A stretch of DNA of 64,000 nucleotides, taken from NCBI GenBank assembly GCA_965237985.1, contig OZ250161.1:1615012-1679011 (forward strand), written 5' to 3'. Made by a program: the position numbers and the translations under genes. The notes under the pieces were generated by a model. That model did not search any database and had not been told where the DNA came from. It saw nothing but the letters and a program-made list of their open reading frames with translations. This document shows, one piece after another, positions 3,665 through 51,653 of the stretch. The DNA is from Candidatus Oxydemutatoraceae bacterium. Its GTDB lineage: Bacteria > Pseudomonadota > Gammaproteobacteria > Poriferisulfidales > Oxydemutatoraceae. The stretch's first letter is position 1. Each line of letters begins with the position of its first letter.

Positions 3665-3813
3665 GAAAAAAAAGGTTTCAGGAGAAGGAGTGTTATCGGT
3701 GTTCGCTGCGGCTTGCTGAGGAACTGCGGGTAGAATGGCATGGGCTGCATTTTGTACCCACCCCCGGGGGCAAGTGGAAACAAGCCGTGAATTATAGATT
3801 GGGAGGATTAAGA

Positions 3814-4119
3814 ATGCCGGATGAAACCAAAGCGCAACAGCTTCTTCGCATTGAATCAGCGGTTTTTCAGCGGCTGGTCGAGCATTTGCGAGAACGTGCG
3901 GATGTTCAAAACATTGACTTGATGACGCTTGCTGACTTTTGTCGAAACTGTCTTGCAAAATGGTACGTGGCAGCGGCGAAAAACGAAGGTCTTTCTGTAG
4001 ACTATGAGCAGGCTCGCGAGCGGATTTACGGAATGCCGTATCGACAGTGGAAAGAAAAACACCAGACCCCGATGACTCCGGAACAGGAAAAAGCATTTGC
4101 CGCCCGTGAAAAACAATAA
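3814..4119 (+). CDS. Small conserved protein, DUF1244-like ('FCRNCLAKWY' motif)
   Basis: 101 aa, starting from ATG 3814. GGGAGG lies 7 nt upstream (3801-3806). The six-frame ORF begins at a GTG at 3787. It is antisense to the over-long mobA ORF. The family assignment is from memory of the FCRNCL motif. Confidence 0.55.
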   Translation: MPDETKAQQLLRIESAVFQRLVEHLRERADVQNIDLMTLADFCRNCLAKWYVAAAKNEGLSVDYEQARERIYGMPYRQWKEKHQTPMTPEQEKAFAAREKQ

Positions 4120-4904
4120 TGCCTGAAGCTGATTTCAGCAACACGCAGCTGCTGCGTTACAGCCGCCAGCTCATGCTTCCTGAAATTGGCTTGCAAGGAC
4201 AGCATACCCTGCAGGATTCCTGCGTTTTGATCATTGGCATGGGAGGACTGGGCATTCCTCTGGCGACCTACCTTGCCACCAGCGGCGTCGGCAAACTGAT
4301 TCTGGTTGACGGAGATCGGATTGAACTCGCCAATCTTCACCGCCAGCCCCTGTATCGTGAAAGTGATGTCGGGGCGGAAAAAGTCACCGTGGTTGCGGAG
4401 CGCTTGGCGGCATTGAATTCGGAAATTGAAATACAGACGTTCGGCCAGCGCGCCGATGAAGACATGGTCAGCGATCTGGCGATCGGGGCGCAAGTGGTGG
4501 CCGACAGCTCGGACAACTTTCAGACCCGTTTTGCCGTGAATCGCGCCTGCTGGAAAAGCACCAGGCCCTTGGTGAGCGCCGCAGTCATTCGTATGGAAGG
4601 GCAACTCACGGTTTTTGATTCCAGGAACCCGGAAAGCCCGTGCTACGCCTGCCTGTATCCGGAACGGGTGTCGGGACAACAGGAGGAAAGTTGCGTGGAA
4701 AGCGGCATAGTCGCGCCTTTGGCCGGAATGATGGGCTGTGCCCAGGCACTGGAAGTTACCAAACTACTGCTGGATATTGGTACCTCTTTGACTGGTCGGT
4801 TTTTGATGCTGGATGCCCGTCTGATGGAATGGCGTGAAATCCGCCTTCGGAAAAGTCCGGGCTGCACGGTGTGCGGGCCTGCGAACCAGGGTGCCCGTGA
4901 CTGA
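4119..4904 (+). CDS. moeB: Molybdopterin-synthase adenylyltransferase MoeB (ThiF/HesA family)
   Basis: 'LIIGMGGLGIPLATYLATSGVGKLILVDGDRIELANLHRQ', plus C-terminal CxxC pairs (CYAC...CTVCG). Its last ~50 nt form part of the downstream 125-bp repeat. Confidence 0.85.
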   Translation: MPEADFSNTQLLRYSRQLMLPEIGLQGQHTLQDSCVLIIGMGGLGIPLATYLATSGVGKLILVDGDRIELANLHRQPLYRESDVGAEKVTVVAERLAALNSEIEIQTFGQRADEDMVSDLAIGAQVVADSSDNFQTRFAVNRACWKSTRPLVSAAVIRMEGQLTVFDSRNPESPCYACLYPERVSGQQEESCVESGIVAPLAGMMGCAQALEVTKLLLDIGTSLTGRFLMLDARLMEWREIRLRKSPGCTVCGPANQGARD

Positions 4905-6390
4905 AACAGACACCCTGCTGACCCTGGAGATTACTGGTACCAGACTGGACATCCCGGGAACCGCACATGTTTCCAGGAAGTCCGGACTGCACGGTGTGCG
5001 GGCCTGCGAACCAGGGTGCCCGTGACTGAAACAGACACCCTGCTGACCCTGGAGATTACTGGTACCAGACTGGACATCCCGGGAACCGCACATGTTTCCA
5101 GGAAGTCCGGGCTGCACGGTGTGCACCTGCGAACCAGGGTGCCCGTGACTGAAACAGACACCCCGCTGACCCTGGAGATTACTGGTACCAGACTGGACAT
5201 CTTGGGAACCGCCTGCGAACCAGGGTGCCCGTGACTGAAACAGACACCCCGCTGACCCTGGAGATTACTGGTACCAGACTGGACATCCCGGGAACCGCAC
5301 ATGTTTCCAGGAAGTCCGGGCTGCACGGTGTGCGGGCCTGCGAACCAGGGTGAAACAGACACCCCGTGACTGAAACAGACACCCAGGAAGTCCGGGCTGC
5401 ACGGTGTGCGGACCTGCGAACCAGGGTGCCCGTGACTGAAACAGACACCCCGCTGACCCTGGAGATTACTGGTACCAGACTGGACATCCCGGGAACCGCA
5501 CATGTTTCCAGGAAGTCCGGGCTGCACGGTGTGCGGACCTGCGAACCAGGGTGCCCGTGACTGAAACAGACACCCCGCTGACCCTGGAGATTACTGGTAC
5601 CAGACTGGACATCCGGGAACCGCACATGTTTCCAGGAAGTCTGGGCTGCACGGTGTGCGGGCCTGCGAACCAGGGTGTACCCGTGACTGAAACAGACACC
5701 CTGCTGACCCTGGAGATTACTGGTACCAGACTGGACATCTTGGGAACCGCACATGTTTCCAGGAAGTCCGGGCTGCACGGTGTGCGGACCTGTGAACCAG
5801 GGTGCCCGTGACTGAAACAGACACCCCGCTGACCCTGGGATTACTGGTACCAGACTGGACATCTTGGGAACCGCACATGTTTCCAGGAAGTCCGGGCTGC
5901 ACGGTGTGCGGGCCTGCGAACCAGGGTGCCCGTGACTGAAACAGACACCCCGCTGACCCTGGAGATTACTGGTACCAGACTGGACATCTTGGGAACCGCA
6001 CATGTTTCCAGGAAGTCCGGGCTGCACGGTGTGCGGGCCTGTGAACCAGGGTGCCCGTGACTGAAACAGACACCCTGCTGACCCTGGAGATTACTGGTAC
6101 CAGACTGGACATCCCGGGAACCGCACATGTTTCCAGGAAGTCCAGGCTGCACGGTGTGCGGACCTGCGAACCAGGGTGCCCGTGACTGAAACAGATACCC
6201 TGCTGACCCTGGAGATTACTGGTACCAGACTGGACATCCCGGGAACCGCACATGTTTCCAGGAAGTCCGGGCTGCACGGTGTGCGGACCTGCGAACCAGG
6301 GTGCCCGTGACTGAAACAGACACCCCGCTGACCCTGGAGATTACTGGTACCAGACTGGACATCTTGGGAACCGCACATGTTTCCAGTATC
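4850..6390. repeat. Tandem array of ~125-bp units, about 12 copies, each copying the moeB 3' end plus the TraB-family gene 5' end
   Basis: The motif 'cccgtgactgaaacagacacc' recurs at 4893, 5018, 5141, 5225, 5430, 5553, 5680, 5807, 5930, 6052, 6180 and 6303. Each unit encodes '...PGCTVCGPANQGARD*' (moeB tail) and 'MPVTETDTxLTLEITGTRLDIxGTAHVS' (TraB head). The period is not a multiple of 3. Confidence 0.9.
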
Positions 6391-7672: not shown

Positions 7673-8016
7673 CAAGCGGCCAGTCGGTCTATAAGCCGGG
7701 TTCTGTGATCGATAGTCATCCATCTGCGGTGTACGTCACCGCACACCTCTTGCGGCCCACCCGAACCTTGGCGCGGGCTACGCGGTTCTAAATTTGGCCT
7801 TGCTCCAAGTGAGGTTTACCCCGCCGCGCATGTTGCCATCCGCGCGGTGCGCTCTTACCGCACCTTTTCACCCTTACCCGCAATAAAGCGGGCGGTATAT
7901 TTTCTGTGGCACTTTCTGTAGGCTCGCGCCCCCCAGGTGTTACCTGGCACTCTGCCCTGTGGAGCCCGGACTTTCCTCTGCTCGAAGGCAGCGACTATCC
8001 GACCGACTCGCCGATT
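7673..8016 (-). ncRNA. rnpB: RNase P RNA, bacterial type A
   Basis: Minus-strand sequence contains 'AGGAAAGTCCGGGCTCCACAGGGCAGAGTGCCAGGTAACACCTGGGGGG', 'GGTAAGGGTGAAAAGGTGCGGTAAGAGCGCACCGCGCGG', 'GGTAAACCTCACTTGGAGCAAGGCCAAAT' and 'ACAGAACCCGGCTTATAGACCGACTGGCC'. These are collinear with E. coli M1 RNA. The P1 helix pairs ggcgagtcggtc with gaccgactggcc. Confidence 0.85.
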
Positions 8017-8236: not shown

Positions 8237-11200
8237 TGGCAAGACCCGTTTCAGTCAGGCTTTGCCTGCTCACCCATGGTGGTGTCGTAACTCTGTAACC
8301 TCAGGCGATGCATGGTGTCCCGTGCCTGTTCCTGTTGATGTGTATAAGGCCCGAGCAATACTTGGAATCATGTCTGGAACCGTTTGTTGTCGTTCGCAGG
8401 GACAGCATCGGTGCGGACTTCGAAGCCCAGTTCGACTACGGTTTTTTCCAGTTTCAAAGCAAGACCCGTTTCAGTCAGGATTTGCCTGCTCACCCATGGT
8501 GGTGTCGTAACTCTGTAACCTCAGGCGATGCATGGTGTCCCGCGCCTGTTTCTGTTGATGTGTATAAGGCCCGAGCAATACTTGGAATCATGTCTGGAAC
8601 CGTTTGTTGCCGTTCGCAGGGACAGCATTGGTGCGGACTTCAAAGCCTGGTTCGACTACGGTTTTTTCCAGTTTCAAAGCAAGACCCGTTTCAGTCAGGC
8701 TTTGCCTGCTCACCCATGGTGGTGTCGTAACTCTGTAACCTCAGGCGATGCATGGTGTCCCGCGCCTGTTTCTGTTGATGTGTATAAGGCCCGAGCAATA
8801 CTTGGAATCATGTCTGGAACCGTTTGTTGCCGTTCGCAGGGACAGCATCGGTGCGGACTTCAAAGCCTGGTTCGACTACGGTTTTTTCCAGTTTCAAAGC
8901 AAGACCCGTTTCAGTCAGGATTTGCCTGCTCACCCATGGTGGTTGTCGTAACCCTGTAGTCTGAGGCGATGCATGGTGTCCCGCGCCTGTTTCTGTTGAT
9001 GTGTATAAGGCCCGAGCAATACTTGGAATCATGTCTGGAACTGTTTCTTGTCGTTCCCAAGGACAGCATTGGTGCGGGCTTCAAAGCCCAGTTCGACTAC
9101 GGTTTTTTCCAGTTTCAAAGCAAGACCCGTTTCAATCGGGATTTGCCTGCTCACCCATGGTGGTGTCGTAACCCTGTAACCTCAGGCGATGCATGGTGTC
9201 CCGCGCCTGTTTCTGTTGATGTGTATAAGGCCCGAGCAATACCTGGAATCATGTCTGGAACCGTTTGTTGCCGTTCGCAGGGACAGCATCGGTGCGGACT
9301 TCAAAGCCTGGTTCGGCTACGGTTTTTTCCCGTTTCAAAGCAAGACCCGTTTCAATCGGGATTTGCCTGCTCACCCATGGTGGTGTCGTAACCCTGTAAC
9401 CTCAGGCGATGCATGGTGTCCCGCGCCTGCATCCTGTTGATGTGTATAAGGCCCGAGCAATACTTGGAATCATGTCTGGAACTGTTTCTTGTCGTTCGCA
9501 AGGACAGCATTGGTGCGGGCTTCAAAGCCCAGTTCGACTACGGTTTTTTCCAGTTTCAAAGCAAGACCCGTTTCAGTCAGGATTTGCCTGCTCACCCATG
9601 GTGGTGTCGTAACCCTGTAGTCTGAGGCGATGCATGGTGTCCCGCGCCTGTTTCTGTTGATGTGTATAAGGCCCGAGCAATACTTGGAATCATGTCTGGA
9701 ACTGTTTCTTGTCGTTCGCAAGGACAGCATTGGTGCGGGCTTCAAAGCCCAGTTCGACTACGGTTTTTTCCAGTTTCAAAGTAAGACCCGTTTCAGTCAG
9801 GCTTTGCCTGCTCACCCATGGTGGTGTCGTAACCCTGTAACCTCAGGCGGTGCATGGTGTCCCGCGCCTGTTCCTGTTGATGTGTATAAGGCCCGAGCAA
9901 TACTTGGAACTGTTTTTTGTCGTTCGCAAGGACGGCATGGTGCGGGTTTCGAAGTCTGGTTCGGCTACGGTTTTTTCCAGTTTCAAAGCAAGACCCGTTT
10001 CAATCGGGATTTGCCTGCTCACCCATGGTGGTGTCGTAACCCTGTAGTCTGAGGCGATGCATGGTGTCCCGCGCCTGTTCCTGTTGATGTGTATAAGGCC
10101 CGAGCAATACTTGGAATCATGTCTGGAACCGTTTGTTGCCGTTCGCAGGGACAGCATCGGTGCGGACTTCAAAGCCTGGTTCGGCTACGGTTTTTTCCAG
10201 TTTCAAAGCAAGACCCGTTTCAATCGGGATTTGCCTGCTCACCCATGGTGGTGTCGTAACCCTGTAACCTCAGGCGATGCATGGTGTCCCGCGCCTGTTC
10301 CTGTTGATGTGTATAAGGCCCGAGCAATACTTGGAATCATGTCTGGAACCGTTTGTTGTCGTTCGCAAGGACAGCATGGTGCGGGCTTCAAAGCCTGGTT
10401 CGACTACGGTTTTTTCCAGTTTCAAAGCAAGACCCGTTTCAATCGGGATTTGCCTGCTCACCCATGGTGGTGTCGTAACCCTGTAACCTCAGGCGATGCA
10501 TGGTGTCCCGCGCCTGTTCCTGTTGATGTGTATAAGGCCCGAGCAATACTTGGAACTGTTGGAACCGTTTGTGTCGTTCGCAAGGACAGCATGGTGCGGG
10601 TTTCGAAGCCTGGTTCGGCTACGGTTTTTTCCAGTTTCAAAGCAAGACCCGTTTCAGTCAGGATTTGCCTGCTCACCCATGGTGGTGTCGTAACTCTGTA
10701 ACCTCAGGCGATGCATGGTGTCCCGTGCCTGTTTCTGTTGATGTGTATAAGGCCCGAGCAATACTTGGAATCATGTCTGGAACTGTTTCTTGTCGTTCGC
10801 AAGGACAGCATTGGTGCGGGCTTCAAAGCCCAGTTCGACTACGGTTTTTTCCAGTTTCAAAGCAAGACCCGTTTCAATCGGGATTTGCCTGCTCACCCAT
10901 GGTGGTGTCGTAACCCTGTAACCTCAGGCGATGCATGGTGTCCCGCGCCTGTTTCTGTTGATGTGTATAAGGCCCGTTTCAAAGCAAGACCCGTTTCAAT
11001 CGGGATTTCCCTGCTCACCCATGGTGGTGTCGTAACTCTGTAACCTCAGGCGATGCATGGTGTCCCGCGCCTGTTTCTGTTGATGTGTATAAGGCCCGAG
11101 CAATACTTGGAATCATGTCTGGAACCGTTTGTTGCCGTTCGCAGGGACAGCATGGTGCGGGTTTCGAAGTCTGGTTCGGCTACGGTTTTTTCCAGTTTCA

Positions 11201-12010
11201 AAGCAAGACCTGTTTCAATCGGGATTTGCCTGCTCACCCATGGTGGTGTCGTAACCCTGTAACCTCAGGCGACGCATGGTGTCCCGTGCCTGTTTCTGTT
11301 GATGTGTATAAGGCCCGAGCAATACTTGGAACTGTTTTTTGTCGTTCGCAAGGACGGCATGGTGCGGGTTTCGAAGTCTGGTTCGGCTACGGTTTTTTCC
11401 AGTTTCAAAGCAAGACCCGTTTCAGTCAGGATTTGCCTGCTCACCCATGGTGGTGTCGTAACCCTGTAACCTCAGGCGATGCATGGTGTCCCGCGCCTGT
11501 TTCTGTTGATGTGTATAAGGCCCGAGCAATACTTGGAATCATGTCTGGAACCGTTTGTTGTCGTTCGCAGGGACAGCATCGGTGCGGACTTCAAAGCCCA
11601 GTTCGGCTACGGTTTTTTCCAGTTTCAAAGCAAGACCCGTTTCAATCGGGATTTGCCTGCTCACCCATGGTGGTGTCGTAACTCTGTAACCTCAGGCGAT
11701 GCATGGTGTCCCGCGCCTGTTTCTGTTGATGTGTATAAGGCCCGAGCAATACTTGGAATCATGTCTGGAACCGTTTGTTGCCGTTCGCAAGGACAGCATC
11801 GGTGCGGACTTCAAAGCCTGGTTCGACTACGGTTTTTTCCAGTTTCAAAGCAAGACCCGTTTCAATCGGGATTTGCCTGCTCACCCATGGTGGTGTCGTA
11901 ACCCTGTAACCTCAGGCGATGCATGGTGTCCCGTGCCTGCTGGTTGGTATAAGGCCCGAGCAATACTTGGAACTGTTTCTTGTCGTTCGCAAGGACAGCA
12001 TTGGTGCGGG
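8237..12010. repeat. Tandem array of ~220-bp units, about 17 copies, degenerate copies of the 3' end of the SPOR-domain gene
   Basis: 'gcgatgcatggtgtcc' recurs at 8306, 8526, 8746, 8966, 9187, 9407 and onward, every 220 bp. Minus-strand translation of each unit gives 'KLEKTVVELGFEARTNAVLANDKKQFQ', matching the C-terminus of the gene at 11862..12380. Confidence 0.9.
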
Positions 12011-12380
12011 CTTCAAAGCCCAGTTCGACTACGGTTTTTTTCAGTTTCTCCGCATCGCTGTGCAGGGCAAAAACGCGCGATTGCAAGTGGTATATTTTTG
12101 CCGAACTCGGGTGGTTGTCAGAGTCCCCGGTGACCAGTTTTTGACGATCCTTGAGCAAAGTGAAATAAGTGTAGCGGGCCTGTTGCACTTCGTTGTCTGC
12201 CACTATCGGTTTTTTTGCTGATGGAACGGGTGGCGTTGCCGGATTTCTGTCTGCGTTTACCTGATAGAGGTAGATGGTCAACACCACGAAGCCGACAAGC
12301 CCGGCGAACAGCACCCACCGTGTGGGTTTTTTCTGTGCTGTTTCCAGTTCGTGGGCCCGGTGTTTGTAGTCCTTGATCAT
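11862..12380 (-). CDS. SPOR-domain protein (N-terminal TM anchor, C-terminal SPOR peptidoglycan-binding domain)
   Basis: Membrane helix 'WVLFAGLVGFVVLTIYLY'. C-terminal 'VVELGFEARTNAVLANDKKQFQVLLGPYTNQQARDTMHRLRLQGYD' fits the SPOR fold. It lies downstream of argS, as with SPOR genes in other gammaproteobacteria. Confidence 0.7.
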   Translation of the reverse strand: MIKDYKHRAHELETAQKKPTRWVLFAGLVGFVVLTIYLYQVNADRNPATPPVPSAKKPIVADNEVQQARYTYFTLLKDRQKLVTGDSDNHPSSAKIYHLQSRVFALHSDAEKLKKTVVELGFEARTNAVLANDKKQFQVLLGPYTNQQARDTMHRLRLQGYDTTMGEQANPD

Positions 12381-18391: not shown

Positions 18392-19380
18392 ATCTGGAGG
18401 GGGTTGGTGTGTGCGCCATGGCATTTTGAATAAAAATTTCCACCAGTATTTCCTACCTCTTCTGTGAAGATTCTGGGCTTTCCAAGTGTCTTTATGCCGT
18501 TCCTTGGTTTTTCACCTTCCGCTAAAGCTGGGGTCGCGCCCAAGTTGCCGTCCGTTGCCGTTTTCGGCAAAGACTTTTTGCCTGGTCTACCAAGTTGCCG
18601 CGCCCCTTTGCCAGTCTGAGCATAACGGTTTCGTGGCTGTCTCTCTGCCTGTTGCCAGCTGCGTCCCGAGGAAAGTCGACGTGTCGACATCGGCCCGGAA
18701 TTTTCCACCATCCGGCATGAACTCCCCGTCACCAGCCGCCACTCACCATCAAGTCTCCACGTCCTGTTCATTGGAAGCTTCTTCCGCTAAAGCTGGGGTC
18801 GCGCCCAAGTTGCCGTCCGTTGCTGTTTTCGGCAAAGACTTTTTGCCCTGTATGCCCAACTCTTCCAGTTTTTTTGCCTGGTCTACCAAGTTGCCGCGCC
18901 CCTTTGCCAGTCTGAGCATAACGGTTTCGTGGCTTTCTCTCTGCCTGTTGCCAGCTGCGTCCCGAGGAAAGTCGACGTGTCGCCATCGGCCCGGAATTTT
19001 CCATCATCCGGCATGAACTCCCCGTCACCAGCCGCCACTCACCATCAAGTCGCCACGTCCTGTTCATTGGAAGCTTCTTCCGCTAAAGCTGGGGTCGCGT
19101 CCAAGTTGCCGTCCGTTGCCGTTTTCGGCAAAGACTTTTTGCCCTGTATGCCCAACTCTTCCAGTTTTTTTTGGCCTGGCCTACATAAGTTGCCGCGCCC
19201 CTTTGCCAGTCTGAGCATAACGGTTTCGTGGCTTTCTCTCTGCCTGTTGCCAGCTGCGTCCCGAGGAAAGTCGACGTGTCGCCATCGGCCCGGAATTTTC
19301 CACCATCCGGCATGAACTCCCCGTCACCAGCCGCCACTCACCATCAAGTCTCCACGTCCTGTTCATTGGAAGCTTCTTCC
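18392..19380. repeat. Composite repeat: a duplicate of the yajC 5' end and upstream region (18392-18520 copies 18175-18300), plus three extra ~299-bp tandem copies of the rmuC 3' end
   Basis: 'ttccgctaaagctggggtcgcg.ccaagttgccgtccgttgc' occurs at 18517, 18780, 19078 and 19378 (the last within rmuC). Minus-strand units encode 'GRPGKKSLPKTATDGNLGATPALAE', the rmuC C-terminus. 'ttctgtgaagattctgggctttccaagtgtctttatgccgttcc' occurs at 18243 and 18460. Confidence 0.85.
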
Positions 19381-20651
19381 GCTAAAGCTGGGGTCGCGCC
19401 CAAGTTGCCGTCCGTTGCTGTTTTCGGCAAAGACTTTTTGCCCTGTATGCCCAACTCTTCCAGTTTTTTTGCCTGGCCTACTAAGTTGCCGCGCCCCTTT
19501 GCCAGTCTGAGCATAACGGTTTCGTGGCTTTTGCAGGCCCGTTCCAGGTTTTTCCCCAAGTCTTTCGCAGACTCCAGGACGCCACTTACTTTATTGTAGA
19601 AAGACGCAGCCTGTCGCACAATTTTCTGGGTGTTCTCTTGCTGCTTGTGAGAGCGCCAGAGGTTTTCAATGATGCGTAAAGTCGGCATCAAGGTATTGAG
19701 CGTCACGAGTCCGACGCGCATTCGCAAAGACTCATCGAATAACGAGGAGTCTTCGTTCAGTGCCGCCGCCAGCGCGTTCTCCAAGGGCACAAACATGAGA
19801 ACGAAATCCAGCGAGTGGACCTGCGGCAGGTCTTGGTAGTTTTTCGCGGCCAGGTCTTTGATATGTTTGCGCATGGCTGCCAGGTGTGCTTTCAGGCATT
19901 TGCTTTTGGCCTCCTCGTTTTTTGCCTCCTGGGCGTTCAGGTAGTCGACCATATTCAGTTTTGAATCGATGATGACCTGGCGGTCAGTCGGCAATTCAAT
20001 CACTATGTCTGGGCGTAACAGGGTGCCGTCTTCGTTGCGATAGCTTTTCTGGGCGTGATAATCCACGCCTTCCTGCAGCCCTGCGGCTTCAAGGATGCGT
20101 CCCAGCTGCACTTCCCCCCAACTGCCTCGTACCTGCGGTGACCGACGCAAGGCGCTTACCAGCTCCTGCGCTTCGTGCGCCAGGGATTCATTTATTTCAC
20201 GTACGTTTTTCAAACCTTCAACCAGCGTGGTGCGCTCCCGGGTAGTTTCATGTCCTTGTCGTTCCAGTTGTTCGCGAAACTGCTGAAACGCTTCCTGAAG
20301 TGGTTTTACGGTGGCATTGAGTTCGCTTTTCCCACGTTCGGCGTAACGGCTGTCAAGCACCTTCATGCTTTTCAAAGTCGCCTGTTCGAGCCGCGCGTCG
20401 AGGGACTGTTCATGTTCTTGGTAAATTTGCGTGCGGCTTTCCAGTCGTGCGCACTCTTCACGTTGCAACTGATGCGCTGCACGTTCTTTTTCCAGTTCCG
20501 ATTGCTCGTGGCGAAGCTGCGTTTCCTGTTCCCGACACAAGGTCTCCACCTGCTTGCGTTTCTGTTGTTCCATTTTGTGTTTGTGCACGAAAAACATTGC
20601 CCCGATAGCGCCCCCCGCACCAGCGCCGAGCAATAAATAGATCACTTCCAC
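19344..20651 (-). CDS. rmuC: DNA recombination protein RmuC
   Basis: N-terminal TM, long coiled-coil region, C-terminal RmuC nuclease-like domain ('DFVLMFVPLENA'). 435 aa. Confidence 0.85.
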   Translation of the reverse strand: MEVIYLLLGAGAGGAIGAMFFVHKHKMEQQKRKQVETLCREQETQLRHEQSELEKERAAHQLQREECARLESRTQIYQEHEQSLDARLEQATLKSMKVLDSRYAERGKSELNATVKPLQEAFQQFREQLERQGHETTRERTTLVEGLKNVREINESLAHEAQELVSALRRSPQVRGSWGEVQLGRILEAAGLQEGVDYHAQKSYRNEDGTLLRPDIVIELPTDRQVIIDSKLNMVDYLNAQEAKNEEAKSKCLKAHLAAMRKHIKDLAAKNYQDLPQVHSLDFVLMFVPLENALAAALNEDSSLFDESLRMRVGLVTLNTLMPTLRIIENLWRSHKQQENTQKIVRQAASFYNKVSGVLESAKDLGKNLERACKSHETVMLRLAKGRGNLVGQAKKLEELGIQGKKSLPKTATDGNLGATPALAEEASNEQDVET

Positions 20652-20850
20652 TGTCGTCCTCCCGAAACAGAAAATATCAAGTATTCTGCATTTTATGCCG
20701 AGCTTTGCTTGTCCGCCGGGCAGGAATCCTACAGAGACACTCTCTGTTCAAAGCGGCCAGCATGGTCGCGCGCAGCTGCCGCGCCCCTCCGCCGGCAACA
20801 GTATTCAGGATGGTGCGGTTATGGTCATCCGGATACGTCACGCCAGCTCA

Positions 20851-22089
20851 CTAGGGTTCTTGCCGACTTTCCCCGGTAGGCTTCATCGGCGGCAGGGTCT
20901 GCTTCCCTCTCGTGTGCTCGCTCTGCCTGAGTAGTGCCCAGCGGACGTGCTCGCGCACCAAGGGTGAGGAGTGGTTCGTTCTACTGCGCAACGCCTGAGC
21001 CACCTTTTTGCTGCGCGGCGCGTTGCCGAGCCCCACGGCAAGATTGCGCAGCCAGCGTTCGTAACCCAGTCGGCGCAAAGTGCTGCCACGCGTCCGGGCA
21101 GCAAAGTCTTTTTCATCCCAGTCCCAGAGAGACAGCAAAGTCGCAGCGTCCAGTCCCTTGCGCACCTGGAAAGCAGTTTCTTCGCTGGTTTTCGCAAAAC
21201 GGTTCCAAGGGCAGATGGTCTGGCAATCGTCGCAGCCGAAAATACGATTGCCGATCAACGGTCTCAGTGTTTCCGGGATAGTCCCTTTGTGCTCGATAGT
21301 GAGGTAAGCGATGCAACGACTTGCGTCCAACCGGTATGGTGCGATGATGGCACGGGTCGGACACACATCCAAGCAGCGTCGGCAACTGCCACAGTGGTTT
21401 TTTGCGGGACGGGAAACGGGGAGCGGGAGGTTGGTGTAGAGCTCGCCGAGAAAAAACCACGAACCCACACGGCGATTGAGCACCAAGGTGTTTTTCCCAA
21501 TCCAGCCCAAACCCGCTTGTTCGGCAATGGCTTTTTCCATGACCGGGGCACTGTCGCAAAAAGCTCGGTAATGAAAAGTTCCGGCGGCCTGAGTAATTTT
21601 GTCAGCGAGTTTCTGCAAACGTTTGCGTATCAGTTTGTGGTAATCACCACCAAGTGCGTAGCGGGCAATCTGTGCCAGGTCGGAAGCGTCTTCGTCGAGG
21701 CCATGACCGGCAACCCCGGGCGGCAAATAATTCATCCGTACTGAAATGATGGTTAGGGTTCCGGGCATCAGTTGTGCCGGACGCGTACGCTTGGTGCCAT
21801 GTTTTTCCATGAATGCCATGTCGCCGTGCATGCCATCGCGCAACCAATTCAGCAGGCGACTTTCGTGTTCGCCGATGTCTGCGTGACTGATTCCGGTCGC
21901 CTGAAAGCCCAGCTCGCTTGCCCACCGCTTGATTCGTTGCACCAGTCTTCGCAGCTTCGTTGTAGCAAGCGAGGTGTCGCCTGACACGCTGGTTTGGTGA
22001 GTTGGCGAACCGCGGGTTTTCACGCTGGCCTGGTTGGTTAGCGGGTCGCGGGCTTTCACGCTGACCTGTGGCAAGTCATGGGCTTTCAT
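20851..22089 (-). CDS. queG: Epoxyqueuosine reductase QueG (start uncertain; N-terminus overlaps an in-frame 66-bp repeat)
   Basis: 'RIKRWASELGF', 4Fe-4S ferredoxin cysteines 'CGSCRRCLDVCP' and 'CDDCQTICPWN', HEAT-like C-terminus. The conserved part begins near 'TTKLRRLVQRIKRW'. The upstream 50 aa are repeat-encoded. Confidence 0.8.
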   Translation of the reverse strand: MKAHDLPQVSVKARDPLTNQASVKTRGSPTHQTSVSGDTSLATTKLRRLVQRIKRWASELGFQATGISHADIGEHESRLLNWLRDGMHGDMAFMEKHGTKRTRPAQLMPGTLTIISVRMNYLPPGVAGHGLDEDASDLAQIARYALGGDYHKLIRKRLQKLADKITQAAGTFHYRAFCDSAPVMEKAIAEQAGLGWIGKNTLVLNRRVGSWFFLGELYTNLPLPVSRPAKNHCGSCRRCLDVCPTRAIIAPYRLDASRCIAYLTIEHKGTIPETLRPLIGNRIFGCDDCQTICPWNRFAKTSEETAFQVRKGLDAATLLSLWDWDEKDFAARTRGSTLRRLGYERWLRNLAVGLGNAPRSKKVAQALRSRTNHSSPLVREHVRWALLRQSEHTRGKQTLPPMKPTGESRQEP

Positions 22090-22520
22090 GCTGTTTGGTT
22101 GGCGAACCGCGGGCTTTCACGCTGACCTGCGGCGAGTCATGGGCTTTCATGCTGGTTTGGTTGGTTAGCGAACCGCGGGCTTTCATGCTGGCCTGGTTTG
22201 GTTGGTTGTGGCAAGTCATGGGCTTTTGCTGGTTTGGTTGGTTAGCGAACCGCGGGCTTTCACGCTGACCTGTGGCAAGTCATGGGCTTTCATGCTGACC
22301 TGTTGGTTAGCGAACCGCGGGCTTTCATGCTGGCCTGTGGCAAGTCATGGGCTTTCATGCTGGCCTGGTTGGTTAGCGGGTCGCGGGCACTCATGCTGAC
22401 CTGTGGCAAGTCATGGGCTTTCATGCTGACTTGCGGGGAGTCATGGGCTTTCATGCTGGCCTGGTTGGTTAGCGGGGCGCGGGCTTTCACGCTGGCCTGC
22501 GGCGAGTCATGAGTTTTCAC
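21960..22520. repeat. Tandem 66-bp repeat, about 8 units, in frame with queG on the minus strand, encoding (MKAHDLPQVSVKARDPLTNQAS)n
   Basis: Alternating 'gacctgtggcaagtcatgggctttcatgctg' and 'gcctggttggttagcgggtcgcgggctttcacgct' units between 22021 and 22520. Every unit carries an in-frame ATG on the minus strand. Confidence 0.85.
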
Positions 22521-22703
22521 ACGGTGCCAAAAAATTGTCTGTCAAACCGGGAGCGGGTAACGGGGAATGATGTTTGTGGCAGTAGCTGCATTGGAGAATT
22601 TTACAGATTTCGGGGCTCCGGCGGCATCCAGAATGTTTTTTGCACAAAGCAAAAATCACAGCGTCTGGTTTGACCCTTTCCTGAGGGGCGTTATTATCAT
22701 TGC

Positions 22704-24203
22704 ATGCTTCCCCTGTACACCTCTCGGCAAAGCAAAAAGCTTGACGAGATCATTATTGGTACCGGCCTGATCAGTGGTGCCGAATTGATGAGCCGCGCCG
22801 CCCATGCGTGCTTCGATGAAATCGTGAAACGTTGGTCGGAAGCCAGAGAAATCACGATTTTCGCAGGTCCTGGCAACAACGGAGGGGACGGATATTTGCT
22901 GGGTGCCTTGTTGTTGCTTGAAGACAGGTACGACGTAAAACTGGTGGCGTGCGCAGCAGGGAGGACTTTGTCGAGGGATGCCTCTGCGGCGCGGGAACAA
23001 TTTTTGGCAGGAGGAGGTTCGGAGTTTCCAGCAGGGACTCTGCTGCGCGGAGATTTGCTGGTCGACGCCATGTTCGGTACCGGCCTGAAACGGCCTCTGG
23101 ATGCCGATACATTATCGATAGTGGGCCATATCAATGACGCGCAATGCACCGTGCTGGCCGTGGATGTGCCAAGCGGGCTGAACTCGGATACCGGAGCCAT
23201 GATGCCGCAGGCCGTGCGAGCGGATGCAACCGTTACATTCATTGTCCGCAAACAGGGACTGTACACCGCTCAAGGTCGCGATTGTTGCGGAGAAATCGTT
23301 TTTGCCTCCCTGGGGGAGTGGCAAGAAGTACTCGCCGAGGAACCGGCAGCGGCGCAGTTGCTTTCCTACCGCGATGTCTGTGGACATCTGTCGCCCTGTC
23401 GCCGTGATGTTCATAAAGGTGATCTGGGTCACGTCTTAGTCATCGGCGGCAACCATGGCACGGCCGGTGCGGCGCGGCTTTGTGCCGAGGCGGCATTGCG
23501 CAGTGGTGCCGGATTGGTGAGCGTCGCCACACGTCCTGAGCACGTGGCAACAATCGCCGCCGATTGTCCGCCCCTGATGGTGCATGCCGTGTCCGGCGCG
23601 AAAGAAGCACTGCCGCTGACAGCCCGTGCCGATATTGTGGCCGTGGGGCCGGGGCTGGGGCAAGATGACTGGGCGATGGAGATGATGTCGGTGGCTCTGG
23701 ATGCGAAACAATGGCGGGTTGTGGATGCCGACGCGCTGAATTTGCTCGCCATCGAACCGTGCCGTTCGCAACGCTGGGTGCTGACGCCGCACCCTGGCGA
23801 GGCAGGACGGATGCTGGGGATTTCCAGTGCCGAGGTGCAAAAAGACCGCTTTCTGGCGTTGGCACAGCTGCGCGAACGCTATGGTGGGGTGTGCGTCCTC
23901 AAAGGTTCCGGCACACTGCTTGCGGCACATGACATGCCTTGCCCCACCGTCGTCCTGCCCGGTAATCCCGGGATGGCGACAGCGGGTGCCGGTGATGTCT
24001 TGACCGGCGTGGTGGCGGGTTTGCTCGCCCAAGGCTTGAAGCCGGAGGTGGCCGCACAAACTGCGGTGTGTGTGCACGCGCAGGCCGGAGATGATGCCGC
24101 GCAGAGTGGTGAGCGCGGCCTGCTGGCGACGGACATTCTGGCGGCCTTGCGCAGACGAGTGAACCCTGGCATGGATGCGAATGACGAAAAGGCTGTTTGT
24201 TGA
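22704..24203 (+). CDS. nnr: Bifunctional NAD(P)H-hydrate repair enzyme Nnr (YjeF_N epimerase plus YjeF_C ADP-dependent dehydratase)
   Basis: N-terminal 'IFAGPGNNGGDGYL', C-terminal 'VIGGNHGTAGAARL...GPGLG...GNPGMATAGAGDVLTG'. nnr-tsaE-amidase order matches E. coli yjeF-yjeE-amiB. Confidence 0.85.
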   Translation: MLPLYTSRQSKKLDEIIIGTGLISGAELMSRAAHACFDEIVKRWSEAREITIFAGPGNNGGDGYLLGALLLLEDRYDVKLVACAAGRTLSRDASAAREQFLAGGGSEFPAGTLLRGDLLVDAMFGTGLKRPLDADTLSIVGHINDAQCTVLAVDVPSGLNSDTGAMMPQAVRADATVTFIVRKQGLYTAQGRDCCGEIVFASLGEWQEVLAEEPAAAQLLSYRDVCGHLSPCRRDVHKGDLGHVLVIGGNHGTAGAARLCAEAALRSGAGLVSVATRPEHVATIAADCPPLMVHAVSGAKEALPLTARADIVAVGPGLGQDDWAMEMMSVALDAKQWRVVDADALNLLAIEPCRSQRWVLTPHPGEAGRMLGISSAEVQKDRFLALAQLRERYGGVCVLKGSGTLLAAHDMPCPTVVLPGNPGMATAGAGDVLTGVVAGLLAQGLKPEVAAQTAVCVHAQAGDDAAQSGERGLLATDILAALRRRVNPGMDANDEKAVC

Positions 24204-35876: not shown

Positions 35877-36983
35877 TCACAGTATTCGTGTGTTTTGTTG
35901 GTGTTCGAATTCGAAAATGCAGTCAGTCAAGGTCTGGCTTTTGATGGCGTTGCGGACGGTTTTCAGCAGATTTTGGTAATAGTGCAGATTGTGAAAAGTA
36001 TTCAGTATGGGGCCGAGCATTTCGTTGCTGTGGTCGAGGTGGTTCAAATAGGCGCGGCTGAAATGCTTGCAGGTATAGCAGGCGCAGTCAAGGTCAACGG
36101 GGCGCAGGTCTTTCCGGTATGCGGCATTGCCGATTTTCAATATGCCGCGACTGGTGTACAGGAACCCGGTTCGGGCGTTTCGAGTTGGAATGACGCAATC
36201 AAACAGATCCACACCATGACGTATTGCGGTTAGCAGGTCTTCGGGCCGGCCGATGCCCATCAGGTAGCGCGGCTGGTTTTCTGGCAGCAAAGGCAAGGTG
36301 TCGGCGAGCACCTGCACTCGTGTTTCGGCGTCTTCGCCGACTGAAAGGCCGCCGATCGCATATCCGTCAAAAGCCATATCGCACAGCATTGCCGCTGAAG
36401 TAGCGCGCAGGTCGGTGTACATGCCGCCCTGCACAATGCCAAAGATTGCCGAATCGACGCCGGCATGTGCTGCTTTGGATCGGGCTGCCCAGCGCATGGA
36501 ACGCTGCATGGAAGCTTCCGCGACTGCTTTGCTGACGGGATGCGCAGTACACTCGTCGAATGCCATGGTGACATCGCTGCCAAGTGCTATCTGTACGGCG
36601 ACGGAACGTTCCGCATCCAGCAGAAATTCCTGGCCATTCAACGGCGAGCGGAAACAGGCACCACGCTCAGTAACCCGGCAATGTTTCCCGAGACTGAAAA
36701 CCTGATAGCCGCCCGAATCAGTCAGAATCGGCCCGTCCCAGCCCATGAATGCATGCAGGCCACCGGCATCACGGATAATGTTTTCGCCCGGGCGCAACAT
36801 GAGGTGGTAGGCGTTTGCCAGGATCATGCGCGCTCCGCTTTCGACCATCATTCTGGGAGTCAGCCCCTTGACGGTAGCCTGTGTTCCCACCGGCATGAAA
36901 GCAGGCGTCGGGACGGTGCCGCGCGGGAAACGCAATTCCCCGGCGCGCGCCTGACCGCAGTGACTGTCAACGTGAAACTGCAT
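35877..36983 (-). CDS. tgt: Queuine tRNA-ribosyltransferase (tRNA-guanine transglycosylase)
   Basis: 'RGTVPTPAFMPVGTQATVKG', 'LTDSGGYQVFSL', zinc site 'CACYTCKHFSRAYLNHL'. Start at 'MQFHV', Met 5 of the ORF. Confidence 0.9.
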   Translation of the reverse strand: MQFHVDSHCGQARAGELRFPRGTVPTPAFMPVGTQATVKGLTPRMMVESGARMILANAYHLMLRPGENIIRDAGGLHAFMGWDGPILTDSGGYQVFSLGKHCRVTERGACFRSPLNGQEFLLDAERSVAVQIALGSDVTMAFDECTAHPVSKAVAEASMQRSMRWAARSKAAHAGVDSAIFGIVQGGMYTDLRATSAAMLCDMAFDGYAIGGLSVGEDAETRVQVLADTLPLLPENQPRYLMGIGRPEDLLTAIRHGVDLFDCVIPTRNARTGFLYTSRGILKIGNAAYRKDLRPVDLDCACYTCKHFSRAYLNHLDHSNEMLGPILNTFHNLHYYQNLLKTVRNAIKSQTLTDCIFEFEHQQNTRIL

Positions 36984-37255
36984 GGTTTTTCTCAATTACA
37001 CGTGGTGTCTTTGAAATGGTAAAAGCAGCGTTCAAGCCTAAAGGTTTGTTGCGGTGTGTGCAGCGCAGGTGTTTGCCAGGATCATGCGCGCTCCGCTTTC
37101 GACCATCATTCTGGGCGTTAGCCCCTTGACGGTAGCCTGTGTTCCCACCGGTATGAAAGCAGGCGTCGGGACGGTGCCGCGCGGGAAACGCAATTCCCCG
37201 GCGCGCGCTTGGCCGCAGTGGCTGTCAACGTGAAACTGCATGGTTTTTCTCAATC
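36790..37255. repeat. Tandem duplication, two ~230-bp units, of the queA 3' end-tgt 5' end junction
   Basis: 36813-37020 is nearly identical to 37067-37275. The second copy yields the ORF 37038..37346, a tgt N-terminal fragment ('MQFHVDSHCGQARAGELRFPRGTVPTPAFIPVGTQATVKG...'). Confidence 0.85.
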
Positions 37256-38271
37256 CACATGGCGTCCCCGAAACTGTAAAAGCGATATAGGTTCGTAATG
37301 GCGTGTTCATAAGCCGCACGCATTTTTTGAAGGCCAGCAAACGCACAAACCAGCACGAAAAGCGTGCTGCGGGGCAAATGAAAATTGGTGATCAGTGCAT
37401 CCACAACTTTGAAAGCATAACCGGGGCGTATGAAGAGGTTGGTTTCACCGCTTTGTGGCAGCAGCTCTCCGGTGGTGTCGCAGGCAGCTTCCAATGTGCG
37501 CAAGGCAGTGCTCCCAACCGCGATGACTTTTCCTCCTCGAGCCCGACACGCGGCTATTTCCGCGCTGGTTTTGGCGTTCAGTATAAAGCGCTCACTGTGC
37601 AAGTGGAGCTGCGTCAGACTCTCGGACCGCAAAGGCTGAAAAGTTCCTGCACCGATGTGTAAAGTGATATTTGCCATGCGGATCTCGCGGTCGGCGAGTT
37701 TGCGGAGCAGCGCTTCGTCAAAGTGCAAACCGGCGGTCGGGGCTGCGACTGAACCGGGGTTCCGCGCATAAACAGTCTGATATCTTTCCCGATCCATACT
37801 GTCCGTGGCGCGTTTGATGTAGGGGGGCAACGGGACTTTTCCAGATTGGTTCAGAAGTGATTCCATGGTTTCATCAGCGGCGGTTTCGATCACGTAGAAT
37901 TGGCTTTTGCTCAGGGACACAACACGCAAATGGGCACCATTATTGAGTGTAAGGATGGTGTTTTCCCGTACCCGATTGCTGGCGGAAAGAGAACAGTTTG
38001 CCTGGCGGTCGTCGAGGATGCGTTCAATGAGAATTTCCACTTTCCCGCCGCTGCTTTTGTGTCCATGTAAACGTGCGGGGATGACTTTGCTGTCATTGAA
38101 CACCAGCAAATCGCCAGACGACAGGAGTTGTGTGACCTGATGGAAGCGAAGGTCGTGGAAAGTGTTGTTGCCTTCGGGAACGTGCAACAGACGGGCAGCG
38201 GTGCGCTGTTCGGCAGGATAGTATGCAATTCGCTTCTCTGGAAGCGTGTAATCGAAATCGCTGGTTTTCAT
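37225..38271 (-). CDS. queA: S-adenosylmethionine:tRNA ribosyltransferase-isomerase
   Basis: 'MKTSDFDYTLPEKRIA' N-terminus and 'GDAMW' C-terminus. I trimmed the ORF to Met 13. Confidence 0.9.
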   Translation of the reverse strand: MKTSDFDYTLPEKRIAYYPAEQRTAARLLHVPEGNNTFHDLRFHQVTQLLSSGDLLVFNDSKVIPARLHGHKSSGGKVEILIERILDDRQANCSLSASNRVRENTILTLNNGAHLRVVSLSKSQFYVIETAADETMESLLNQSGKVPLPPYIKRATDSMDRERYQTVYARNPGSVAAPTAGLHFDEALLRKLADREIRMANITLHIGAGTFQPLRSESLTQLHLHSERFILNAKTSAEIAACRARGGKVIAVGSTALRTLEAACDTTGELLPQSGETNLFIRPGYAFKVVDALITNFHLPRSTLFVLVCAFAGLQKMRAAYEHAITNLYRFYSFGDAMWIEKNHAVSR

Positions 38272-38309
38272 CCCGCGCTGGCAATGCTTCGGCTTAGCAC
38301 AAGACAAAA

Positions 38310-41300
38310 GAATTCATGGTGGAACGCAGCGGTGTCTGAGCGACCGGAAAGTATCGTTTCCCGTGGTCACGGCACAATGGGCTTGCGGTCATGCATATTC
38401 CGGAAGTCAGACCATCCGGTACCGAGTGGTTGCGCAAATCCGGCATCATACTTTTGACTGTCATCAGTTTCTTTTGGACATTGGCATTCATGGTGGAACG
38501 CAGCGGTGTCTGAGCGACCGGGAAATATCGTTTCCTGCGGTCACGGCATAATGGGTTTGCGGTCATGCGTATTCCGGAAGTCAGACCATCCGGTACCGAG
38601 AGGTTGCGCAAATCCGGCATCATACTTTCGGCAGCCATCAGTGTCTTTTGGACATTGGCATTCATGGTGGAACGCAGCGGTGTCTGAGCGTTCGGAAAGT
38701 ATCGTTTCCCGTGGTCACGGCATAATGGGTTTGCGGTCATGCATATTCCGGAAGTCAGGCCATCCAGTACCGAGAGGTTGCGCAAATCCAGCACTACATT
38801 TTCGGTAGTCATCAGTGTCTTTTGGACATTGGCATTCATGGTGGAACGCAGCGGTGTCTGAGCGACCGGAAAATATCGTTTCCCGTGGTCACGGCATAAT
38901 GGGCTTGCGGTCATGCATATTCCGGAAGTCAGACCATCCGGTACCGAGGGGTTGCGCAAATCCAGCACTACTTTTCGACTAGTCATCAGTTTCTTTTGGA
39001 CATTGGCATTCATGGTGGAACGCAGCGGTGTCTGTGAGCGACCGGAAAGTATCGTTTCCCGTGGTCACGGCATAATGGGTTTGCGGTCATGCATATTCCG
39101 GAAGTCAGACCATCCGGTACCGAGAGGTTGCGCAAATCCGGCATCATACTTTTCGACAGTCATCAGTTTCTTTTGGACATTGGCATTCATGGTGGAACGC
39201 AGCGGTGTCTGAGCGTTCGGAAAATATCGTTTCCTGCGGTCACGGCATAATGGGTTTGCGGTCATGCGTATTCCGGAAGTCAGACCATCCGGTACCGAGA
39301 GGGTTGCGCAAATCCAGCACTGCATTTTCGGCAGTCATTAGTGTCTTTTGGACATTGGCATTCATGGTGGAACGCAGCAGTGCCTGAGTGAGCGACCGGA
39401 AAATATCGTTTCCCGTGGTCACGGCATAATGGGCTTGCGGTCATGCGTATTCCGGAAGTCAGACCATCCGGTACCGAGGGGGTTGCGCAAATCCGGCACA
39501 TATTTTCGGCAGTCATCAGTGTCTTTTGGACATTGGCATTCATGGTGGAACGCAGCGGTGCCTGAGCGTTCGGAAAATATCGTTTCCGTGGTCACGGCAT
39601 AATGGGGTCGTGGTCATGCGTATTCCGGAAGTCAGACCATCCGGTACCGAGAGGTTGCGCAAATCCGGCATCATACTTTTGACTGTCATTAGTTTCTTTT
39701 GGACATTGGCATTCATGGTGGAACGCAGCGGTGTCTGAGCGACCGGAAAATATCGTTTCCTGCGGTCACGGCATAATGGGTTTGCGGTCATGCGTATTCC
39801 GGAAGTCAGACCATCCGGTCACCGAGAGGGTTGCGCAAATCCAGCATCATTTTCGGCAGTCATCAGTGTCTTTTGGACATTGGCATTCATGGTGGAACGC
39901 AGCGGTGTCTGAGCGTTCGGAAAATATCGTTTCCTGCGGTCACGGCATAATGGGTTTGCGGTCATGCATATTCCGGAAGTCAGACCATCCGGTACCGAGG
40001 GGGTTGCGCAAATCCGGCACTGCATTTTCGGCAGTCATCAGTGTCTTTTGGACATTGGCATTCATGGTGGAACGCAGCGGTGTCTGAGCGACCGGAAAGT
40101 ATCGTTTCCCGTGGTCACGGCATAATGGGTTGCGGTCATGCGTATTCCGGAAGTCAGACCATCCGGTACCGAGGGGTTGCGCAAATCCGGCACTGTATTT
40201 TCGGCAGTCATCAGTGTCTTTTGGACATTGGCATTCATGGTGGAACGCAGCGGTGTCTGAGCGACCGGAAAGTATCGTTTCCTGTGGTCACGGCATAATG
40301 GGTTTGCGGTCATGCGTATTCCGGAAGTCAGACCATCCGGCACCGAGAGGTTGCGCAAATCCAGCATCATACTTTCGACTGTCATCAGTTTCTTTTGGAC
40401 ATTGGCATTCATGGTGGAACGCAGCGGTGTCTGAGCGACCGGAAAGTATCGTTTCCTGCGGTCACGGCATAATGGGTTTGCGGTCATGCGTATTCCGGAA
40501 GTCAGGTCACCCTTCACAGAGGGGTTGCGCAAATCCGGCACTGTATTTTCGGCAGTCATCAGTGTCTTTTGGACATTGGCATTCATGGTGGAACGCAGCG
40601 GTGCCTGAGTGAGCGACCGGGAAATATCGTTTCCTGCGGTCACGGCATAATGGGCTTGCGGTCATGCTATTCCGGAAGTCAGGCCATCCGGTACCGAGGG
40701 GGTTGCGCAAATCCGGCATCATACTTTCGGCAGTCATCAGTGTCTTTTGGACATTGGCATTCATGGTGGAACGCTTGAGCGACCGGGAAATATCGTTTCC
40801 TTGGCACAATGGGTTTGCGGTCATGCGTATCACAGAGGGGTTGCGCAAATGGCACTATATTTTCAGCAGTGTCTTTTGGACATTGGCATTCATGGTGGAA
40901 CGCAGCGGTGTCTGTGCGACCGGAAAGTATCGTTTCCCGTGGTCACGGCATAATGGGCTTGCGGTCATGCGTATTCCGGAAGTCAGACCATCCGGTCCGA
41001 GAGGTTGCGCAAATCCGGGATTTTCAGGAGGCCAGGGGGTTGCGCAAATCCGGCATCATACTTTTGACTGTCATCAGTTTCTTTTGGACATTGGCATTCA
41101 TGGTGGAACGCAGCGGTGTCTGCGACCGGAAAGTATCGTTTCCTGCGGTCACGGCATAATGGGTTTGCGGTCATGCGTTTCCGGAAGTCAGGCCATCCGG
41201 TACCGAGAGGTTGCGCAAATCCAGCATCATACTTTTGACTGTAAGTTTCTTTTGGGCATTGGCATTCATGGTGGAACGCAGCGGTGCTGATGAGCGTCCG

Positions 41301-51233: not shown

Positions 51234-51653
51234 ATGCAGACCATAGCAGTGCGCATAGTCAGCCAGAAGGGCGAGGTTTACAACGGTAAGGCAAACATAG
51301 TCAGCGCCGATGCCCACGACGGCGGAGTCGGGATATACCCTGGGCACGCCCCGTTCCTGACCTTGCTCCGACCAGGAGAAGTCAAAGTGCAGGTCGAAGG
51401 AAAAGAAGACCTGCGCTTTTTCGTGGCCGGTGGCATGCTCGAGGTTCAGCCCGACTTGGTGACAGTTCTGGCAGACACCATTGAGCGTAGCGAAGACCTG
51501 GACGAAGACCGCGCCGAAGCGGCAAAGAAACAGGCAGAAGCGCTGGCGCACAAAGGCGATCTAAGCCCTGAGGACAGAGCCAGAGCCATCGAACAACTCA
51601 CCGAAGCGGTTGCCCGCCTGCACATGATCGAAGAACTCCAGAAACGGCACTAA
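51234..51653 (+). CDS. atpC: ATP synthase F1 subunit epsilon
   Basis: N-terminal beta-sandwich ('VVSAD...GILPGHAP') plus C-terminal helical hairpin. 139 aa. Confidence 0.9.
   Translation: MQTIAVRIVSQKGEVYNGKANIVSADAHDGGVGIYPGHAPFLTLLRPGEVKVQVEGKEDLRFFVAGGMLEVQPDLVTVLADTIERSEDLDEDRAEAAKKQAEALAHKGDLSPEDRARAIEQLTEAVARLHMIEELQKRH

Follow-up and report, generated by a model that had tools for sequence, protein, structure and literature searches.

Where does translation of a gene begin when half a kilobase of tandem repeats stands directly in front of it, and do those repeats encode part of its protein? The question is raised by queG, the gene for tRNA epoxyqueuosine(34) reductase, in a 64,000-nt stretch of contig OZ250161.1 from a Candidatus Oxydemutatoraceae bacterium (the window, in whose coordinates all window positions are given). 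There, queG lies on the minus strand and is preceded by a 533-bp tandem array (22520-21988). A first-pass annotation had taken this array for a 66-bp repeat read in the queG frame, which would form a contingency-type, length-variable leader or give QueG a repeated 22-aa N-terminal region. Here, we argue that the array is likely a locus-specific, partly decayed minisatellite in the 5' leader of queG, born locally, that has displaced the gene's original start codon.

An irregular array of two unit types precedes queG

In the output of Tandem Repeats Finder (TRF), the main row of the array has a period of 66 nt, 5.7 copies, 80% matches and 8% indels (22047-22428), while overlapping rows with periods of 30, 36, 65 and 96 nt extend to 22519; scores range from 117 to 362. 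An anchor motif, RTGAAAGCCCRYG, occurs 13 times, always on the minus strand and within 22011-22490, against a mean of 0.85 in shuffled sequence. Head-to-tail copies so far above chance are the mark of a minisatellite, or variable-number tandem repeat (VNTR). Cutting the array at the anchor occurrences resolves it into 16 sub-units (21988-22520, minus strand) of two types: A, of 30 nt (RTGAAAGCCCATGACTTGCCACAGGTCAGC), and B, of 36 nt (RTGAAAGCCCGCGGTTCGCTAACCAACCARRCCAGC). Their order from 22520 to 21988 is irregular: A B A A B A B(35 nt) A B, then a 41-nt A/B chimera, then B A B(31 nt) A B B'. The 66-bp repeat first described is thus a real array with a real 66-nt period, but one actually built from 30-nt and 36-nt sub-units in irregular order. 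Nor is a period divisible by 3 peculiar to it among the arrays of the window, as had been supposed: the array at 38312-42945 has one of 174 nt.

Pairwise identity is 80-100% among A units (mean 90%) and 67-97% among B units (mean 84%), the most diverged members being the two edge units, and the defects in length include a 5-nt loss as well as the A/B chimera. Identical A units stand far apart, at 22424, 22293 and 22089, which suggests that multi-unit blocks were amplified. Nine of the 16 sub-units open with ATG, six with GTG, and one has lost its start, against the ATG first ascribed to every unit. Because its units are diverged and bear indels, the array is a decaying minisatellite, unlike a homogeneous slippage tract.

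Evidence that the array arose in place

The array separates queG from the divergent gene nnr (22704-24203, plus strand); both genes were identified by profile search. Seven related genomes lack the 30/36-nt array, and in L001 and L002 the nnr-queG spacer is ~240 bp long with no array in it. Between a TTGACA box and the GAGG-ATG of the gene start, the relatives hold an ancestral leader segment of ~27 nt, GTRAAACCCCACGGCACCCAAAGCAGC. The first unit of the array aligns to their single-copy CTGAAACCCCACGGCACCCAAAGCAGC, and the last unit aligns to the same single-copy segment with a 9-nt insertion. Since both edge units align to the relatives' single-copy leader, the alignments indicate that the array was born in place from ~27 nt of the queG leader. 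That leader was ancestrally non-coding, to judge from L002, which has no in-frame ATG or GTG upstream of the gene and a single in-frame TTG (5920) that falls inside the TTGACA box, and whose leader differs from that of L001 by a 2-nt indel. The unit motif was not found elsewhere in the 64-kb window by anchor search, in 89 fetched loci, or by exact-pattern scans of genome and metagenome collections; searches of those collections likewise returned no second genome of the window species.

Displacement of the queG start codon

In the seven genomes without this array, queG starts with GAGG followed by an ATG and the peptide M-H/R-S-L-A-R-R-I-K-R-W (P0003 begins MHSLARRIKRW, and P0121 begins MRSLARRIKRW). 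The P0002 cluster has N-termini of varying length, and its longer models carry an SLARRIKRW-type start motif internally. In the DNA alignment, the ATG of the seven relatives falls on CTG 21954 of the window (21952-21954, minus strand; residue L46 of the longest open reading frame, ORF), and their GAGG has become GCTA, with Shine-Dalgarno (SD) pairing of -5.6 kcal/mol in L001 and L002 versus +0.7 in the window. With the ATG aligned to CTG and GAGG replaced by GCTA, the ancestral SD and ATG of queG are, on this alignment, gone. A remnant of the ancestral single-copy leader persists at 21955-21987 (minus strand), from in-frame GTG 21987, and aligns to GCACCAGCCGACACCCTGCCTGAGGCAACAAAA of the relatives.

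Four in-frame canonical codons are candidates for the present start, ATG 22089, GTG 22059, GTG 22023 and GTG 21987, all of them derived from repeat or leader sequence. The longest ORF, from the first of these (20851-22089, minus strand), encodes 412 aa and begins MKAHDLPQVSVKARDPLTNQASVKTRGSPTHQTSVSGDTSLATTKLRRLVQRIKRW; the conserved enzyme comprises residues 46-412. The earlier idea that queG could start at any of several unit boundaries survives for three, which are in frame and free of stops (ATG 22089, GTG 22059 and GTG 22023), the remaining units being cut off from the gene. The check for SD sequences that accompanied this idea finds weak pairing at these boundaries, of -2.9, -3.7 and -2.5 kcal/mol, respectively. 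SD pairing does not discriminate the candidate starts, and weak SDs are common in this genome; local accessibility does not discriminate them either.

Residue L49 shows conservation of at least 90% across 28 homologues, and in an AlphaFold model the first helix spans residues 39-59, with a predicted local distance difference test score (pLDDT) below 50 for residues 1-37. GTG 21942 (V50) was considered and judged an unlikely start, since it would drop L49 and half of the first helix. The ancestral start being lost and L49 conserved, QueG most likely starts in repeat- or leader-derived sequence upstream of L46. The N-terminal tail thereby added would probably be 11-45 residues long, and is predicted to be disordered. 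QueG enzymes bearing N-terminal His tags have been purified and crystallised (PMC5175355, PMC4646009). Given this and the predicted disorder of the tail, the extension should be tolerated by QueG, in line with the first-pass suggestion that the N-terminus could change without breaking the enzyme.

A different leader duplication in sister strains

In related genomes, the queG leader carries one, two or three tandem copies of a 139-bp unit that differs from the unit of the window and is not a multiple of 3 in length: one copy in L001, L088 and L002, two in L086 and L087, and three in L085 and L089. The contigs of the P0002 cluster all come from one sample, and L002 from another. The 139-bp unit spans a 12-nt micro-repeat, the TTGACA box, the KPHGTQS segment, GAGG and ATGC. 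L001 and L085 carry one versus three copies, yet their queG genes have a synonymous divergence (dS) of only 0.045. These sequences mark the queG leader as a duplication hot spot. The claim that the locus is length-variable is thereby borne out at the level of the clade, co-occurring sister strains having one, two or three copies, albeit of a different unit.

Each internal 139-bp copy opens a 19-codon upstream ORF (uORF; MLYKYQCKYHGKNH.LLPL) that stops at the TGA of TGACATG, 1 nt before an ATG, and in the gene-proximal unit this ATG is in frame with queG. In the gene-proximal copy of L085, ATG reads ATA and GAGG reads GAGA, so that here, too, a genome bearing an array has lost the canonical start, independently of the window. 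GAGG survives in all three single-copy genomes versus one of the five multi-copy genomes, which suggests a link between the presence of an array and loss of GAGG.

The public queG gene calls of the sister strains are over-extended (443, 444 and 386 aa; L001 6001-7332, L088 3001-4335, L085-L087 3001-4161) because the leader happens to be open in frame, and several of them overlap the nnr promoter region.

Reading frames and overlapping small ORFs in the array

Three sub-units have lengths that break the reading frame (35, 41 and 31 nt), and the MKAHD reading passes through all three frames along the array. Seven stops in the queG frame lie between 22293 and 22089; the nearest to the gene, a TGA at 22119-22117 (minus strand), is the first in-frame stop upstream of ATG 22089 and closes off queG from all that lies further up the array. 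The gene is continuous with just three sub-units, A (22089-22060), B (22059-22024) and B' (22023-21988), which form the sole stop-free stretch of sub-units in its frame (21988-22089, minus strand). Frameshifts and stops cut off the other 13 of the 16 sub-units, so that QueG has no (22-aa)n extension of the kind first envisaged. At the same time, the stops do not sever every unit from the conserved core: they isolate these 13 and leave the last three open.

The units begin with RTGA (R being A or G), and A units hold a second ATGA at positions 11-14, with the consequence that a ribosome in the wrong frame ends on a TGA overlapping a start codon; the start reached through this overlapping TGA lies one frame nearer the unit frame. 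Four small ORFs, all on the minus strand, are joined by -4 overlaps in a chain, 22520 > 22293 > 22219 > 22079 > 22059, that leads into the queG frame. ORF1 (22290-22520; GTG start, 76 aa), ORF2 (22216-22293; 25 aa) and ORF3 (22076-22219; 47 aa) each end on a TGA that overlaps the ATG of the next ORF (ATGA), and the TGA of ORF4 (22056-22079; 7 aa, MTCHRSA) overlaps GTG 22059 (GTGA). Read from this GTG, at the end of the chain, queG encodes 402 aa (minus strand).

The most accessible ATGs of the leader, 22219 and 22150 (opening energies of 3.2 and 3.7 kcal/mol), both belong to ORF3. The leader is C-rich (C/G ratio 1.57), and its RNA is weakly structured, folding no better than shuffled sequences (z-score -1.4); the analysis of array and leader found no inverted repeats. 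C-rich, weakly structured RNA invites Rho-dependent termination when untranslated.

Two further readings of the leader were set aside. A queuosine-sensing leader peptide would act through NAY codons, which make up ~14-18% of the unit frame by hand count, against a rough, uncomputed expectation of ~15%; the 6 NAY codons among 19 in the sister-strain uORF were judged unconvincing. The GGTTCG of B units resembles a tRNA T-arm, a likeness judged coincidental.

Conserved elements upstream of the array

On its upstream side the array adjoins a conserved flank containing a perfect TTGACA (22540-22545, minus strand), 20 nt upstream of the first unit and in the same place in 8/8 genomes, which is a candidate -35 element with no convincing -10 box after it; a sigma-32-like reading of this region fails on spacing. 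The flank also includes a 21-mer, GAAATCTGTAAAATTCTCCAA (22591-22611, minus strand), that contains a -10-like hexamer and is identical in the window, L001 and L002; in five sister strains it differs by one base, TAAGAT for TAAAAT. The 21-mer is conspicuous in a spacer that has otherwise diverged; its matches in the collection scan, in two unrelated coding sequences, were attributed to chance. Because conserved elements lie upstream of the array and no promoter-like sites lie within it, we infer that the array is transcribed as the queG leader.

On the other strand and outside the array, the promoter scan finds a promoter-like TTGACC-16-TATTAT for nnr (22670-22697, plus strand), conserved in relatives, whose TATTAT ends 7 nt before the nnr ATG (22704); nnr appears leaderless. 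No known RNA family matches 20500-23500 at an E-value up to 1. Across the whole window the RNA-family scan returned a single match, to RNase P RNA class A (303.8 bits; 7676-8010, minus strand), ~230 nt away from where the 220-nt array starts.

A proposed history of the locus and its alternatives

We propose that a ~27-nt stretch of the ancestral untranslated leader underwent repeated tandem duplication, and that its copies, having diverged into 30-nt and 36-nt variants, were then re-amplified as multi-unit blocks. Under this proposal, queG would now be translated from one of ATG 22089, GTG 22059, GTG 22023 and GTG 21987, and the upstream 13 sub-units would be transcribed leader rather than QueG sequence. 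The chain of small ORFs may pass ribosomes along this long, C-rich and weakly structured leader to GTG 22059. The array would be one product of a clade tendency to tandem duplication at gene boundaries.

Several points weigh against this proposal. No minus-strand promoter for queG reaches threshold in the sigma-70 scan, and SD pairing is weak at every candidate start (-3.7 kcal/mol or weaker). Translation may instead begin at a non-canonical CTG, 21954, or at GTG 21942. The RTGA chain is an automatic outcome of the unit sequence, and amounts to one or two chance events rather than to evidence of selection. Finally, the genomes that connect array presence with GAGG loss are few and phylogenetically related.

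The same chain is open to an adaptive reading, in which the RTGA-linked ORFs have been kept as a translational relay that delivers ribosomes to GTG 22059, shields the leader from Rho and sets QueG output. The unbroken run of four -4 overlaps into the queG frame, the accessible ATGs that open ORF3, the C-rich, weakly structured leader and the sister-strain uORF stop 1 nt before an in-frame ATG all fit such a role. We nonetheless consider it unlikely: the chain comes automatically with the unit sequence, four re-initiations without a good SD would be inefficient, and the peptides of the sister-strain uORFs vary freely.

It is quite unlikely that the array forms an in-frame, length-variable QueG N-terminus acting as a contingency locus. 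Unit lengths (30 and 36 nt) are divisible by 3 and units begin with ATG or GTG, three of their boundaries are in-frame starts, the canonical start is lost, and leader copy number varies among sister strains. Yet of the 16 sub-units 13 lie in another frame or behind stops, their divergence and indels are unlike active slippage tracts, the variable unit of the sister strains differs from that of the window and at 139 bp is not divisible by 3, and queG has a housekeeping role in tRNA modification. Gain or loss of a 30-nt or 36-nt unit would not toggle the gene, and an adaptive contingency switch finds no support here.

A third possibility, that queG is being silenced and is an early pseudogene expressed poorly or not at all, would account for the lost canonical start and 530-nt leader, for the lack of a strong ribosome-binding site at any alternative start, and would suit a small genome of ~2 Mb. 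The state of the gene makes this very unlikely. Its product matches the TIGR00276 profile at 480.9 bits (cut-off 200), residues 53-388 aligning to positions 1-336 of 337, a full-length equivalog match above the cut-off that identifies it as QueG and confirms that the core begins where it was first placed. Both [4Fe-4S] cysteine motifs are present (CGSCRRCLDVCP from residue 233 and CDDCQTICP from residue 286), and Pfam matches to Fer4_16 and QueG_DUF1730 are on record. The closest homologues are P0003 (85% identity, 356 aa) and the P0002 cluster (81%); the best QueG match in the species-representative collection, from which the clade is absent, has 63% identity. Against relatives, the ratio of nonsynonymous to synonymous divergence (dN/dS) of queG is 0.11, at a dS of 0.76. 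By these measures of its sequence, the QueG enzyme is intact and under purifying selection: the ORF is open over 367 conserved codons and keeps its cofactor motifs, the window also holds intact tgt and queA genes, and weak SDs, as noted, are common in this genome.

Lastly, an assembly artefact, with the array or its frame-shifting indels produced by long-read errors, is extremely improbable: contig names do suggest long-read metagenome assemblies, and two frame-breaking defects are only 1-2 nt, but the defects also include the 5-nt loss and the A/B chimera, which are not homopolymer slips, the units differ by many distinct substitutions, and arrays turn up at the same loci in independent contigs from related strains.

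Tandem arrays across the window and clade

Long-period tandem arrays, that of queG included, cover 12,190 of the 64,000 nt of the window (19%). All occupy gene boundaries: rmuC and atpC, for example, have them at their 3' ends, and queA has one upstream. In relatives, arrays recur at some of these boundaries, with different periods, or are absent. Besides the queG array, they lie at 4853-6386, 8239-12048, 18575-19531, 38312-42945 and 51434-52155, with periods of 125, 220, 296, 174 and 238 nt, respectively, and up to ~26 copies. Long-period boundary arrays appear far more numerous in this clade than would generally be expected of a bacterial genome.

The 3' end of rmuC is duplicated by an array, with a 296-nt period in the window (18575-19531) and with 250 nt and 3-5 copies in sister strains (L001 9004-10266, L085 6421-7158, L086 5734-6746); L002 has none there. 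Like the queG boundary, that of rmuC bears different units in different genomes. At atpC (ATP synthase epsilon, 51234-51653), a 238-nt array of 3 copies begins inside the 3' end of the gene and leaves one intact gene copy at the array edge. Between queA and murJ stands the 4.6-kb array at 38312-42945, with its 174-nt period and ~26 copies, which is traversed by long ORFs; the likely true start of queA, ATG 38270, is ~40 nt from this array. Three queuosine-pathway genes, tgt, queA and queG, fall in the one 64-kb window (35877-38307; 20851-22089), and arrays stand directly upstream of both queA and queG, which is probably a coincidence given the density of arrays.

In L002, a 115-nt array of 11 copies (3036-4332) extends across the nnr/tsaE junction; in the window nnr and tsaE overlap, with no array. 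Just downstream of queG, sister strains carry arrays of 163-187 nt as well as 12-nt and 39-nt micro-repeats (L085 4275-5143, L087, L088, L089, L001 7352-7857), which differ in length between strains. Elsewhere in the window, a 958-aa ORF (60094-62970, minus strand) has an IS1595-type DDE transposase domain at residues 2-140 only; the remaining ~800 residues have no Pfam match.

Implications and comparison with known systems

In terms of annotation, the QueG model of 412 aa rests on the longest ORF, and its first 45 residues are repeat- or UTR-derived (UTR, untranslated region); the over-long queG models of relatives (443-444 aa, probably 386 aa) share that cause. For evolution, the locus illustrates how leader duplication can supply new starts and allow the original ribosome-binding site and ATG to decay, and a sister strain offers another, independent case. 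It is conceivable, though doubtful, that this is general: that an unusually active tandem duplication in the clade keeps rebuilding gene boundaries, that leaders duplicated in tandem offer a general way for start codons and 5' UTRs to turn over, and that RTGA units, transparent to translation, make a locally born analogue of MIRUs (interspersed repetitive units of mycobacteria). On such a view, two independent queG duplications (of 30/36 nt and of 139 bp) would have made upstream starts and stop/start-coupled ORFs, after which the canonical SD and ATG would have decayed in two lineages. Were the RTGA relay to work, MIRU-like coupling could arise in place, without a mobile element. The abundance of arrays across the clade is probably a more interesting lead than the queG locus itself.

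Contingency loci, in which simple-sequence repeats drive phase variation, have units of ~1-8 nt and serve surface or restriction-modification genes. The queG array resembles them in placing repeats at the 5' end of a gene, where they could alter initiation. It differs in its units, which at 30 and 36 nt and with their imperfections are neither short nor homogeneous, and in lacking an on/off switch, since a change in unit number keeps the frame and the candidate promoter elements stand upstream of the array.

The likeness to bacterial intergenic minisatellites, or VNTRs, is closer. Here, too, head-to-tail units of tens of nucleotides occupy non-coding DNA at the start of a gene, and at the level of the clade the locus differs in copy number between close strains, through the 139-bp unit. 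Unlike them, the array of the window is degenerate and mixes two types of unit, and it has displaced the start codon that the gene once had.

The overlapping ORFs recall arrangements known from coupled translation. Classic geometries of uORF-mediated coupling by termination-reinitiation are ATGA and GTGA overlaps and a stop lying 1 nt ahead of an AUG (PMC12548453, PMC6728339), and both the overlaps of the window and the sister-strain stop 1 nt before ATG fit them; unlike those cases, the putatively coupled ORFs here are by-products of tandem duplication. In MIRUs, tandem units at the start of a gene hold small internal ORFs joined by -4 (RTGA) overlaps to each other and to the downstream gene, and MIRUs are described as a single, apparently mobile family present in many mycobacteria (PMC12548453). 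The window has the same -4 geometry, its chain of ATGA, ATGA, ATGA and GTGA leading into queG. Its units, however, are not dispersed, occurring only at 22011-22490 of the 64 kb and in none of the 89 loci or the two collections; they were, by our reading, amplified in place, with no insertion of a pre-existing mobile element; and they differ in size, in a host that is a gammaproteobacterium. In kind, then, the queG array is of the minisatellite/VNTR type, unusual in having displaced a start codon and in carrying MIRU-like coupled ORFs of local origin.

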